Source: Xylographa opegraphella (taxonomy: Eukaryota). From it: DNA of 64,000 nucleotides. Positions 3,653-9,520 of the stretch are shown one piece after another; the first letter of the stretch is position 1; the number at the start of each line of letters is the position of its first letter. The DNA is taken from positions 372,001 to 436,000 of the forward strand of contig JALDZX010000011.1 of the NCBI GenBank assembly GCA_022813865.1. Reading direction: 5' to 3'. The notes beneath the pieces are model-generated. The model did no database searches. It was not told the DNA's origin and saw only the letters and a list, made by a program, of their open reading frames with translations. The translations under genes were made by a program, and so were the position numbers.

Positions 3653-4684
3653 TCAAAATTGATCTGTTTACGAATTAGCAATGGCTCAATGGCGGAAGAC
3701 GATCACAAGACTGGAGTGGACACGAAAGCAATGCAGTCATGTCGGTGCTTCCATCCTTCAAACTTACCAAGCGTCATACTCATGCTGACGTCCGTATTCT
3801 CTACCATCTTCGTGAACTCTTCGAAACTGATTTTTCCATCCCGGTCTTTATCAGCTTCCATTATGGTTTTGTCCACAATCTGTCACCTAATTGTCAGCCC
3901 GCAACCCTCGGCCCGTCGCCATTTGTGGAGTATTCTGTATCACATCCTACACCATTCTCCAGAAGTACCTCGCTACCTCTCACTTTAGAACTCACCTGCT
4001 GCAGCTGCATATCCTTCAGATTGCTCCCCACCATCATCTTCAGCACAATGAACAGCTCCCCATTACTGATATATCCGTCGCGGTCAATATCATACACCTT
4101 GAATGCGAAACGTAGTTTCTCTTCCTTATTGCCCTTGGAGCTGAAGGCGCTGAGACCAGAAACGAATTCTTGGAAGTCGACGTCACCGCCGCCGTCTTCG
4201 TCGAAGATGGCAATCATCCTAAGGATCGATCAAGCATCAGTAAGCGCGATAAGTATAGAGTGACAGAGAAGGTTGGTGTTGAAGGAAGAGGGACATGGTG
4301 TCCGGTGCTGAGGAGGAGACAGACCGCGTCGCCAGAGGGTTCGAAGAAACTTGTGGTAGGGAGAGGAACTCATCACGCTCAATTGTGCCGGAGTTGTCCT
4401 ACATACAGGTCAGTCACACTTGATGGGGATCTCTCCATATTAAGCTAAGCGGCTTCCGCGCACTTTGTCCAGCTTCATGAACCGCTTTCGCAGTCGATCG
4501 ACCTCTTCCTTATCGACTATGCGTCGAGTGCATGATTAGGACGTGCGCTCGGCCAAGAACCAGATCAGAATGCTGACTGATACACACAGTTTGATCCTGA
4601 CACTATGTTCTCCAATGTTTGGGCACTGGAGCCCCCGGTTCGTCTTCGCGCATCGTAGAGCGCTGCTGGATTTGCGGACGCCAC
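3653..4684 (-). CDS. CNB1: Calcineurin B regulatory subunit (6 exons; probable GTG start)
   Basis: Exons 4588-4684, 4464-4516, 4325-4398, 3996-4218, 3768-3879 and 3653-3663 splice in frame to ...[68 protein letters not shown]...SMTLDQF*, with four EF hands. Confidence 0.97.
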
Positions 4685-5215
4685 GATTGCTGAATAAACA
4701 GTTGTGCAAGATTCAAAACGACCGTACTTCTATAACCTTCCGACAAAGGTAGATCTCGTGAAGAGTCAAGGCGCACGATGAAAGAGACGGGTGATGGGGG
4801 TTGCTGGCAGCGAATTTGGAGTGTTCTTCACAATAGTGCAACACATAAAGCACGAGACAAACGACCGCTTCTGATATGACTCTGTACCGTAGAATTGGCT
4901 CTCGCTAAAGTTGGACCGCATACCCGTAGCCACAAGAACCAACGCCTTACCATTCTGAATCGAACCCCTCATCCCCCCTCGCCCGCCAGGCCCTGGTCAC
5001 ATCACAACAGGCAATCTTGCGCTAAGCAACCGCAAACCACGTCCCCAAATCTCAGCTTTTTACAGTGCGACCGGTGGTTATCATCATCAAAACATCCACA
5101 TTCACACCTAAAATCACGACTCAAAATTGCATGTCTCATCACCAAATTTCCCAAAAACTCTGGTGATGATTTTTTTACACGGTCGCCCCCCAAGAAAGGG
5201 TCGTGATTCTTGAAT

Positions 5216-7194
5216 ATGACCCGCTCTAGTGCGCCACGACTAGGATTTCGACAGCGCAAGCTCAATACAAAGAGCCAGCTTCCCGTTCTTCGTGAGTCTG
5301 ATTTTGAGACCGAAGGCGGCGGAGAAAATGCCGTTCCAAAAGTCGAAACTGGCGTCGAGAAGGCCGAAGAGACCGTACGTGTGCCTATCTTTTTTCTAAG
5401 TTTTTGCGACAGACCCTTCTTTTGCTTAGTAATGCACCGTTTCCCGCCAGACTTGCCTCTCTTTGTGTAATGATGTTGCCATCATTTCGTAGCCCGTCGA
5501 AGCAACTAACCACGTTCACATGTAGGAACACCATCTTCAAGCCGCCATCTCCGCGTCCCATGCGGCCGCCACTGGGGGAAAGGTCGCCCAGATATACATT
5601 CCCACTCCGGATACCGTCCATAGTTCCATTCAGTATGACCGTCTGTACCCCCCCGTCTTCTCTCAGCCGGCCACGTATATCCGCTTCTCCTCCACGGTGG
5701 AGGACTGCTGCGGGTGTCCGTATAATCTAACTGAAGAGGATGATGTCTGTCTGCGGCTGATCAACGAGAAACGGAGTGCATCTACGCAATGCACCGAAGA
5801 TCAGTTTGAAGAAGTTATGAACTTTTTTGAAGAAACAGCCAAGAACAAGCAGCCGTTCGCAGCTGTGGACAATCCTCCTGTAGTTGCTTGGGAGGAGATG
5901 GAGAACTCTTTCGACGACAATTTTGACGGTGCACTAAGATCATATGCCATAGAGATCTATGGACATTGGAAAAGCAGGAGACTAACCAACGGAAACCAGC
6001 CGCTGATACCCGGCTTGAAAGTAAGGGTATCTGACACCGCAAACTCTGAATAGGAATCGCTAATATGATCATAGTTTGGCACTGGGACTGACACTGACGA
6101 CGGCGATCCATATGTCTGTTTCCGTAGAAGAGAAGTCCGGCAAGTCCGGAAAACACGAGGCAGAGATGCTCAGAGCGTAGAGAAACTCAAGAAACTAAGG
6201 AAAGAACTCGAAGAGGCTCGACAGCTTCTCGCCCTCGTCCGTCAACGAGAAATCACCAAAAGGGAGCAATTAAGCGTAGACAGACAGCTCTTTGAGCAAA
6301 GGAGTAATCTGAGGCAAGTCAAGAAAAATCTCCCTGATCAGTACAAGGAGGGAGACGACGAGCTTTTGATCAATCAAAAGGTATGGGTGTCGTCGAGGAA
6401 GTTTTGTCAGTCCGTTAACTGACAAATCCCAGCCTCAGAAGAAGAAACCACTGGAAATCGCAACCTCGCAACGCACACCTGCAGGTCTACTTCGGTCAAC
6501 CTCTCGGAGCGATGGGCGCTCTGTGGAAGCAGACATGGTATCATTGCAGGATGTACTGGCTGAAAGGGAGAACGAAATCCAGAGGGAGATTGAGATGAAG
6601 ATATCTCAGCACAAGAAATGGAACGAAGGCTACATCGATCAAACCAGAGCACCCCTGACACCTCCGATGGAAGAAAATTTGAGGTCGAATTTTCGTACCG
6701 CACGGACCGAGTACTTACCTACCCCTCCAGCTTCAGTTTCTGAACATTCAGGAGACATTATTGCTGACGAGGGTTCGCCAAGTCGGAAAATGGATGATTC
6801 GATTACTGTCCGCTATGCTTCCCCGACCTATGACGGATGTCTTCGAAGCCAACCATCATTCCGAAGAAGAGTCGGAAGAGGAGGACGCCTCATAATCGAT
6901 CGTCGAGGAATGAACCTCCAGTCAAAGGAAGGTATCGACCCTGCAATGGTAGATCGTTTCAAGTTTGACCGAGATGATGATGACGATGATGAGGTGTCGA
7001 CATACCAAGTTGATCCATTTGATATTTCAAGCATGCGCTATCGAGCTGCAATAGTCGGCAGCTTACAGGCGCATCCACAAGCGCAACCTCAGATTTCAAA
7101 ACGTGCACAGATCGAAGGATCTACTTCCAGTTCTCAACGATCAGCAGCTGTTGCAAGTTCTTCCACCCCACCAAAGAACGCACCTTCTGATTGA
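5216..7194 (+). CDS. EPL1: Enhancer of polycomb-like protein, NuA4 subunit (4 exons)
   Basis: FRQRKLNTKSQLPV, VETGVEKAEE, EHHLQAAIS, VEDCCGCPYNL, DPYVCFRRREVRQVRKTRGRD and FRRRVGRGGRLIIDRR motifs. Confidence 0.95.
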
Positions 7195-7497: not shown

Positions 7498-9140
7498 TTA
7501 TCTCTTCTCAACAAGCTTGCGGGACTTTGAGTCGGAGACTGATCTTTGCCTCTTTACACGGTGATACGCGCCGTTTCCATTCCTCTCCCCTTTAGATGTT
7601 GAGTCTGTTGTGGAAGGCAGTACCACATAAATGTTGTAGAGGTATAATAAAGCAGCTTCAATGATGTGCTTCTCTCCCAGGCGGACTTTTATAGCCATCC
7701 GTTTTCTTCGTTGTGCGACATTTGACTGGTCGTCGATTCTCAGCGCTTGCAACAGTGCTTCATCTTGCGCGATAGTGGTTTTGTAATATTTTCTTCGTGC
7801 TGTTAGAACATCCATAAGTACTCGTACGTGGACCGGATTGAAAATTGGTTTCGGTGCTTTCTTAGCGTGTTTTAGTTGCTCAAATTCTTCTTTGGGTGCA
7901 GTAAGTATGTGCAGTGACTGTAGCAGAGCTGGGTCGAATCCAGCGTAAGGGCGAGATGCATTCCCAGCTCCATGGGAAATGTCGAATGATTCCTCCCACA
8001 AATCCCATTGTTCTGCCAGTGTGATCTTTGACATCATTAGATGACTTTTATCCATGTTGGTACAAATACTTACTCGTTCGTCGAGTTCCTTTTCTGTGAG
8101 CAGTAACGCGAAATCATTTGTATCTCTATTCTCACCTTTACTCTTCGTACAAGCTTCTTTTATTTTCTCGGAGACGATTTCCACTACGTCCCACTGCTTG
8201 TACTCATCACTTACATAACCGTATCGTCTCACCAAATCGGATTGTGGCAAAGGGCCATAGTCATTGAAGATCTCTTCTCCTTTCTTGATATGCTTGGTTG
8301 CGATCATAGTGAGATACTTTGCACTATGATATAGTCTAGCCTAGTCCACTGTCAGTAAACTTTGGTATTTCGAATTTGGAGACAATACATTATTCTTATC
8401 CCCGTCTGCATTTAGCATGTCTGCCAACGGCACCATTCCCTTAGGTTTTTCGTCTTCGTCATCTGATACAAAGCCTTCCTCGTCCACATCTTGTGCGTTT
8501 TCGTCTCTTTCTAGATCAAAGCCGTAGGCCATGATCAAGGTTGCCATTTGGTGGGCGGAGGACATGAACCATTCGTCCGACCTTCCAGTCATAATTTGTT
8601 CACATTGCTTTGCCAAGGGCAGCAAGACCTCTGCAAAGGTCTTATCGGCATCAGCTTTGCCTATCTTGGATATGACGGCACTTCCTTCCAGTTCTTTGAG
8701 TTCGTCTTCAGACCAATGGATGAGAGTATCGATTTCTCTAGGCAGCACACAGAAATACGAAAACCACCTTCCAAGCTGTCCGAGACTACATTCATATATC
8801 ATGACAAGTACTAGGCTCAGCCATGGATCCAGTTGATCTATTTCTGGGATTTTGCTCCGTAGCTCCGAGTTGGCGGTGCTCAGGACTGCGCTCTGCGGAA
8901 TAGAGAAAAGCTCGCAATTCTCCTCAATATCCACTCGAGCAACTATTAGAGGTCAGCTTCACTGATCCATTGTAAGTGGTGCGATGGCATATACAAACCG
9001 ACTCCTCGACCACGTCCCAGAGCAGTCAGGTCTGTCAGTGCGATTTTCTGGCTAATGGAAGCTCCTTCGCCGTTGAGCCACTCCAGGAATTCTTCTGTCT
9101 GCCGTTGATTCCCAGCGCTCCACTGTGGGTATGCAGCCAT
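7498..9140 (-). CDS. SET-domain protein-lysine N-methyltransferase (SETD6/Rkm4-like)
   Basis: FLEWL...GRGRGV, MAYGFD, GMVPLADMLNAD and GEEIFNDYG...LVRRYGY, followed by a Rubisco-LSMT-type substrate-binding tail. About 4 exons. Confidence 0.9.
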
Positions 9141-9520
9141 GATAGACAGGCAGTGAAGTGGCTGGATAATTTCACAGCATGCTTGAATGTCTGAGAAGGG
9201 AACGGCGCTGAGGGTTGTGGGAGATGCGTCTCTAGGCTTAGCGCCAAGCGCAGTCCACCCCGCTTCGAGTATTATTCCACCACGTCCCACTGTTTGCTGC
9301 ATTTCTCTCACATTCCCAAATCTGTAGCTAGATTTACGGCCACAGTGTTCTACAAGTGATAAATTGTATTCTTTCAATCTCCAGTCGTCAATGTCAAACG
9401 CAAAGCTGTGAATTTTTGCAAATTTTCAAGATTAATGTCTCTAATGAACTTACATGTACTCCACTTGATATTCAGAACCTCGACATAAAACTCCATAAAA
9501 AAGCCTCTGCATCCCAATCA

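Follow-up and report, generated by a model that had tools for sequence, protein, structure and literature searches.

Calcineurin B of a Lecanoromycete-like fungus probably starts at GUG

The window, i.e., the whole stretch of 64,000 nucleotides that was analysed, contains a gene for calcineurin regulatory subunit B (CNB1). Calcineurin is the main Ca2+ stress phosphatase of fungi. Read from a GTG on the minus strand, CNB1 is spliced from six exons to 570 nt, which make 189 codons without any internal stop (Table 1). Its assignment to the calcineurin B class is based on EF-hand domains and high sequence identity. The window protein is 85–96% identical to annotated fungal CNB (83% when compared to a model with a retained intron), and these values include 95.7% for Lambiella insularis and 93% for Xanthoria and Lignoscripta, where residue 1 aligns with residue 1. 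Exon 1 finds its best match in Lambiella, a Lecanoromycete, and its protein sequence is conserved among the relatives. The fungus' own genome (24.7 Mb in 241 contigs) contains a single CNB gene; the remaining two matches are EF-hand proteins of 46% and 39% identity. Judged from its sequence, the gene is the sole CNB1 of a Lecanoromycete-like fungus.

CNB1 is arranged head-to-head with EPL1 (5216–7194, plus strand), the two start codons being 531 nt apart. Most orthologous loci, Chaetothyriales-like ones included, retain this pair, and the synteny supports the orthology of the compared CNB loci. The position of intron 1 is common to all intron-bearing relatives examined and is missing in the intronless locus L030. 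Elsewhere in the window, a GA dinucleotide repeat at about 2300–2340 becomes visible as alternating residues of open reading frames. A multi-exon gene occupies 7498–9425 of the minus strand; one of its exons has no Pfam match. Its reading frames resemble a SET-domain lysine methyltransferase.

Table 1. Features of the CNB1 locus (coordinates of the window)
Feature	Position	Strand	Remarks
GTG, probable only start codon of CNB1	4682..4684	-	aligns with the start Met of relatives; GTG in 17/31 orthologous loci
Initiation context GCAATC-GTG-GC	4680..4690	-	A at −3, G at +4
ATG-free leader	4685..4843	-	closest upstream ATG at 4846
In-frame TAG closing the frame 5' of the GTG	4730..4732	-	15 codons separate TAG from GTG
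CNB1 coding exon 1	4588..4684	-	N-terminal extension, ALYDARRR motif
+1-frame ORF, 16 codons	4603..4653	-	ATG at 4653 (A at −3, C at +4), stop 4605–4603
Thr16-Gly17, ACC-GGG	4634..4639	-	place of Met1-Gly2 in short CNB proteins
Intron 1	4517..4587	-	71 nt, branch CTAAT
Coding exon 2	4464..4516	-	holds first in-frame ATG (codon 46), 4478–4476
Coding exon 3	4325..4398	-	spliced gene model
Coding exon 4, EF hands	3996..4218	-	Pfam EF-hand matches; PDB calcineurin B matches, E 1e-44
Coding exon 5	3768..3879	-	spliced gene model
Coding exon 6, TGA stop	3653..3663	-	spliced gene model
EPL1, 5' part	5216..6053	+	PF10513, ATG at 5216, synteny in relatives

A first-pass annotation of this DNA had claimed that exon 1 lacks an in-frame ATG, that a GTG at 4684 with A at −3 and G at +4 is the probable start codon, and that the frame is closed by a TAG about 14 codons further upstream. 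The GTG and its context are indeed found on the minus strand in the frame of CNB. The earliest in-frame ATG is codon 46, which has a weak context (T at −3). The TAG is also there; its distance, however, amounts to 15 codons. Genomic DNA offers no in-frame AUG 5' of the conserved coding sequence, and between 4846 and the GTG the window is free of ATG in every frame. Coding conservation starts at the GTG codon and ends 5' of it. The ATC that immediately precedes the GTG is an in-frame near-cognate codon, too.

The frame GCAATC-start-GC is a favoured AUG context in this genome, since GCAATCATGGC, the same 11-mer with ATG, occurs there in 28 copies, whereas its backwards control has 3. In Neurospora crassa and Aspergillus, the context positions that matter most are A at −3 and G at +4, according to a study on near-cognate initiation (PMC5487733). 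The GTG version, GCAATCGTGGC, is found at 13 further sites of the genome (14 in total, about chance for an 11-mer), none of which resembled a gene start by eye. A helper hairpin 3' of the start, as it accompanies some but by no means all genes with a sole non-AUG start, did not exceed shuffled controls in 15 loci, the z values of the six GTG loci being −0.43 to +0.15. In the region 4650–4690 of the minus strand, within the 35 nt after the GTG, synonymous sites are near-identical between the window and the loci L006 and L008 (5/6), while the gene body is near saturation (13/43 and 20/44), and a small GCGC stem surrounds the out-of-frame AUG of exon 1. A constraint at the RNA level may be at work here, for which folding gave no significant signal.

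Homolog searches and cluster look-ups yielded about 65 proteins, the largest cluster (56 members) being represented by 15. N-termini of the Chaetothyriales and Aspergillus types, whose start Met is spaced differently, were left out, and 33 lichen-type N-termini, with two species present twice, were taken. Among these 33 listed proteins, the residue at the place of the window's Val is Met in 17, Val in 11 and Leu in 5 cases. Other residues do not occur. Met is found in Xanthoria, Rusavskia, Flavoplaca, Cladonia, Alectoria, Heterodermia, Lignoscripta and Acarospora, Val in nine species of Teloschistaceae belonging to several subfamilies, and Leu in Lambiella, Brigantiaea, Psora and Protoblastenia. 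A profile search with 54 matches, two of them unrelated, added three more Val or Leu cases.

The annotated proteins often extend beyond this position. Val or Leu is preceded in 13 out of 15 proteins by K, I or N, whose codons begin with A, and in the remaining two by A or D, whose codons begin with G; a purine at −3 is thereby implied in all 15 proteins that have a preceding residue. Two residues before Val or Leu there is an Ala in 14 of the 15. From the coding point of view, these residues are the initiation context read as protein. Farther 5', the tails of different models are unalignable, two models of one species excepted; gene finders that settle for whatever ATG they meet would produce this pattern. 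Thirteen named lichen species have such tails in their NCBI models (P0002, P0004, P0005, P0036, P0037, P0039, P0040, P0042, P0044, P0047, P0048, P0062 and P0063), and these tails are probably spurious. These 13 species are known from proteins alone, from which we infer their codons as GUG and, for Leu, CUG or UUG. One protein, P0038, comes from an intronless JGI contig of 1070 nt and has been called as a 188-residue CNB that begins at Val. The same source gives V where another one gives M for one and the same start (P0121 and P0090). Both observations speak for initiation at this codon.

DNA of relatives was obtained by a pattern scan of metagenome contigs. It yielded 31 loci, 30 of which comprise the CNB core and one is cut by the contig end. 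The codon homologous to the window's GTG is GTG in 17 and ATG in 14 of the 31, and never any other. The first-pass annotation had proposed to align relatives to see whether the near-cognate codon is conserved; it is, in these 17 loci. They fall into five species-level groups (L006; the L008 group; L012; L014; the L015 group), whose CNB codons are 81–84% identical to those of the window; L014 and the L015 group are 97% alike. Identity at 4-fold sites between GTG loci is as low as 0.30–0.68, i.e., near saturation. GCAAnn-start-GC is present in all six GTG loci, the window included, versus one of ten ATG representatives (Fisher p = 0.0009); counted by the four GTG lineages, the contrast has p = 0.005. 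GTG loci are ATG-free for 154–265 nt upstream, and their AUG-free leader is longer with borderline significance (p = 0.052, 5 vs 7 loci). Two observations count against a sole start at this codon. An open in-frame ATG lies 237 nt upstream in L015/L021, although it is out of frame in the sibling L032. In L006 and P0038, codon 22–23 is an in-frame Met, from which a shortened product might be made that keeps every EF hand.

The loci also differ in their architecture. In L023, L025, L028 and L033, CNB exon 2 is interrupted by an additional intron, and an in-frame ATG precedes the ATG of strong context by 18 codons. L014, L015 and L032 carry a 5-residue insertion directly behind the GTG; their exon 1 contains three out-of-frame AUGs.

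A tree was built from the EPL1 and CNB codons of 12 loci. One clade of 100% support unites the window with all GTG loci and with two ATG loci, L010 and L023; GTG and ATG are interleaved within it. The inner branches of the tree are weak, with 30–68% on DNA and 66–88% on protein. On this tree the start codon changed at least three times, and an ancestral GTG and an ancestral ATG require three steps each. Many lichen-forming relatives appear to carry GUG or a Leu codon at the AUG position, which makes the trait wider than one genome. From the sequences, GUG or a Leu codon (CUG or UUG) is presumably used in Baeomycetales, Psoraceae and much of Teloschistales. The start codon would then be shared yet labile across lichen fungi.

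Very probably, CNB1 initiates solely at a non-AUG codon, the GUG. This start, as claimed in the first-pass annotation, is strongly supported by comparison: The codon is homologous to the start Met of relatives, is found as GTG in other assemblies, alternates with codons for M or L only, and sits in a context that is stricter than that of ATG.

The NCBI models of the species with Val or Leu assume something different, namely that an upstream exon brings the AUG and that the GTG codes for an internal Val. Ten in-frame two-exon models can be drawn in the window, e.g., one that joins an ATG at 4972, via a GTAAGG donor, to the CAG at 4690, but a YTRAY branch site is seen in none of them. L012 and L014 do not allow any such model; the models differ between L014 and L015 and also between L006 and L008, and L017 has four models with a branch site where its near twin L008 has none. 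Loci with ATG start, taken as controls, have 0–5 chance upstream-exon models each, as many as the GTG loci. A Chaetothyriales-like relative, L034, does have an intron within the N-terminal extension, yet the AG is missing at this position in the window. An upstream Met is present in P0016, an intronless Logan contig, 17 residues 5' of its Leu and in frame, and in P0120, likewise in frame, 8 residues 5' of its Val. The tails predicted in different species, however, are mutually unalignable, and an internal residue would not be limited to M, V and L right at the start position. We therefore regard an upstream exon as improbable.

Hardly credible is a start at codon 46 (MKLDK), a decaying copy or an assembly error, because the Met of codon 46 lies within the first EF-hand region of solved structures and is replaced by Lys in the GTG loci L014, L015 and L032, where such a start is ruled out, because the conservation of exon 1 at the protein level argues against decay as well as a start at codon 46, because CNB1 is a single copy with frame and introns intact, and because 17 loci from other assemblies rule out a misread ATG. 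G-to-A RNA editing of the GUG was set aside; we know of no mechanism of nuclear G-to-A RNA editing.

The N-terminal end of the protein deserves a comment. An N-terminal Met-Gly, the site of myristoylation, is typical of animal and yeast CNB. The first-pass annotation had pointed to Thr-Gly in place of it, and by ungapped extension of the alignment with 6tz8_B, Thr16-Gly17 would indeed fall on the position of Met1-Gly2. A link to the GUG does not hold, since ATG-start relatives share the loss: The Met-Gly end is absent from the window CNB and also from the AUG-start orthologs of lichen fungi, Chaetothyriales and Aspergillus. Because these AUG-start relatives lack it, too, the loss of Met-Gly and myristoylation appears to predate the GUG and to be separate from it. 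As far as sequences tell, Met-Gly is not a defining feature of CNB in this clade. The N-terminal extension itself, described before as similar to an NAAAMYDARRR segment of Aspergillus CnaB, is confirmed by PDB 7u0u. The CnaB of Aspergillus fumigatus (PDB 7u0u, 6tz7) and Chaetothyriales CNB have the same extension motif and calcineurin B core but, unlike the window protein, start at Met. Aspergillus has an in-frame Met inside the motif, where lichen fungi have Leu.

The first AUG downstream of the GUG had been noted as out of frame and as encoding a 16-residue peptide; this is correct, and its ATG is the only one in exon 1. It is formed by GAT-GC in Tyr-Asp-Ala, which also sets the A at −3. By its make-up, the out-of-frame AUG is a by-product of the Tyr-Asp-Ala codons. 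It would nevertheless act as a sink for leaky ribosomes, selected or not, since an AUG with A at −3 is there.

Whether it is a decoy selected to work with the GUG, which was the full model of the first-pass annotation, is another matter. The AUG with its A at −3 is real, and GAT encodes the Asp of Tyr-Asp-Ala in 6/6 GTG loci versus 13/44 Asp-before-G codons of the gene body in these loci (binomial p = 0.0007, the loci being non-independent). Moreover, synonymous identity among GTG loci is slightly higher in the motif (0.63) than in the body (0.51). The AUG is kept in the GTG loci, but in ATG-start relatives, too: The same GAT occurs in 7/10 ATG loci (Fisher p = 0.25), and a +1 AUG is found at the motif in 9/10. 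Asp sites of the body range from 1/15 to 10/15 GAT, so that the 13/16 of the motif are only at the top of the range; the +1 ORF varies from 5 to 35 codons across GTG loci, and the six GTG loci are but four lineages. Selection for the AUG is not shown by these counts, and a selected decoy is rather unlikely.

How might the gene work? The ordinary AUG of CNB1 would be replaced by GUG. Ribosomes would scan through a leader that lacks AUG, and at the GUG, aided by its near-optimal context, they would begin translation with Met-tRNAi. The product would be a protein of 189 residues that resembles the one of AUG-start relatives. Being a weak near-cognate start, the GUG would let many ribosomes scan past; they would be caught 31 nt further on by the out-of-frame AUG and make a dead end of 16 residues, not a protein cut at codon 46. 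The net result would be less CNB per mRNA. As may be extrapolated from literature on other genes, CNB output should rise when stringency falls, i.e., with less eIF1 or more eIF5. In a review, CUG and GUG are listed as the most efficient near-cognate starts, and their use is shifted by eIF1 and eIF5 (PMC5666671). Near-cognate starts are used in N. crassa in vitro and in vivo (PMC5487733).

Two further genes of this genome bear on the question of regulation. eIF1 is known to feed back on start-codon stringency via the poor context of its own AUG. Its gene (SUI1; L051, G000:C37) here starts with an ATG that has T at −3 and T at +4; this poor context fits the known feedback. The calcineurin A gene (L059, G000:C227) has an ordinary ATG with A at −3 and G at +4, so that any start-codon control would act on the B subunit. 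Seen from these sequences, a regulation of CNB1 by start-codon stringency is plausible.

The GUG start can, however, be accepted without any regulation. It may be a tolerated, near-neutral weakening, in which a low need for CNB and a perfect context suffice. Close relatives have ATG without other evident changes, the out-of-frame AUG is not a privilege of GTG loci, a hairpin 3' of the start is missing, and calcineurin A has its plain ATG in good context. Against this stand the maintenance of GUG over lineages that are nearly saturated at 4-fold sites and the exchange of Val and Leu codons, which would be hard to achieve by drift alone, and also the fact that a single G-to-A change would bring the AUG back, yet the GUG persists. 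We give this reading a little less than an even chance.

Alternatively, the CNB1 start could be an evolutionary switch. GUG or CUG, together with the AUG sink, would tie the calcineurin level to global stringency, e.g., during drying and rewetting, and lineages back at AUG would have given up that control. This is tentative and doubtful as yet. Given a GUG start, neutral or constitutive damping is somewhat likelier than true regulation.

Sole non-AUG starts are rare, and why weak starts persist is an open question. Here close relatives differ at this one codon, and even a small tree requires at least three changes of it, which makes the question testable by comparison. The GUG start may cap or tune the amount of CNB, a stress-signalling protein; if it caps the B subunit translationally, it bears on the stress handling of lichens. 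Should the switch exist, sister species would form a natural series for one signalling gene, some of them starting it solely at a non-AUG codon and others not. More starts of this kind may be concealed in lichen genomes by gene finders that accept ATG only.

A search for literature on a non-AUG start of calcineurin B, or on non-AUG starts in lichen fungi, found none, with most subscription papers being outside its coverage. Related systems are known. EIF4G2/DAP5 (GUG) and TEAD1 (AUU) are started solely at non-AUG codons (PMC5666671). As is probable for CNB1, the main product of these single-copy genes begins at a near-cognate codon whose context is strong, and an AUG-started full-length form is lacking. 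In fungal 6-phosphogluconate dehydrogenase, non-AUG initiation likewise occurs, but it creates an extra targeting isoform and the AUG form is retained (PMC7214817). Neurospora cpc-1 (PMC5487733) resembles CNB1 in being a case from filamentous ascomycetes, in its fixed position with varying near-cognate codons, in the retained A at −3 and G at +4 and in the link with an out-of-frame AUG. Its near-cognate codons, however, extend the protein at the N-terminus from positions 5' of a main AUG that is kept, and they bypass a uORF. In CNB1, by contrast, the GUG takes the place of the main AUG, and the out-of-frame AUG follows 3' of it. C/EBP-beta (PMC5487733) also combines a near-cognate start of good context with a subsequent out-of-frame AUG and a short ORF. 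There, downstream in-frame AUGs give rise to functional isoforms by reinitiation; the next in-frame AUG of CNB1 in the window would cut into the first EF hand. Sole non-AUG starts, as in DAP5 and TEAD1, and additional near-cognate isoforms in filamentous fungi, as in cpc-1, are thus already known. The notable aspects of CNB1 are the class-wide spread and the switching between relatives: Unlike DAP5 and TEAD1, as far as the cited text describes them, the codon of CNB1, known here from sequence, toggles between AUG, GUG and a Leu codon within one fungal class, and it does so in the subunit of a signalling phosphatase.
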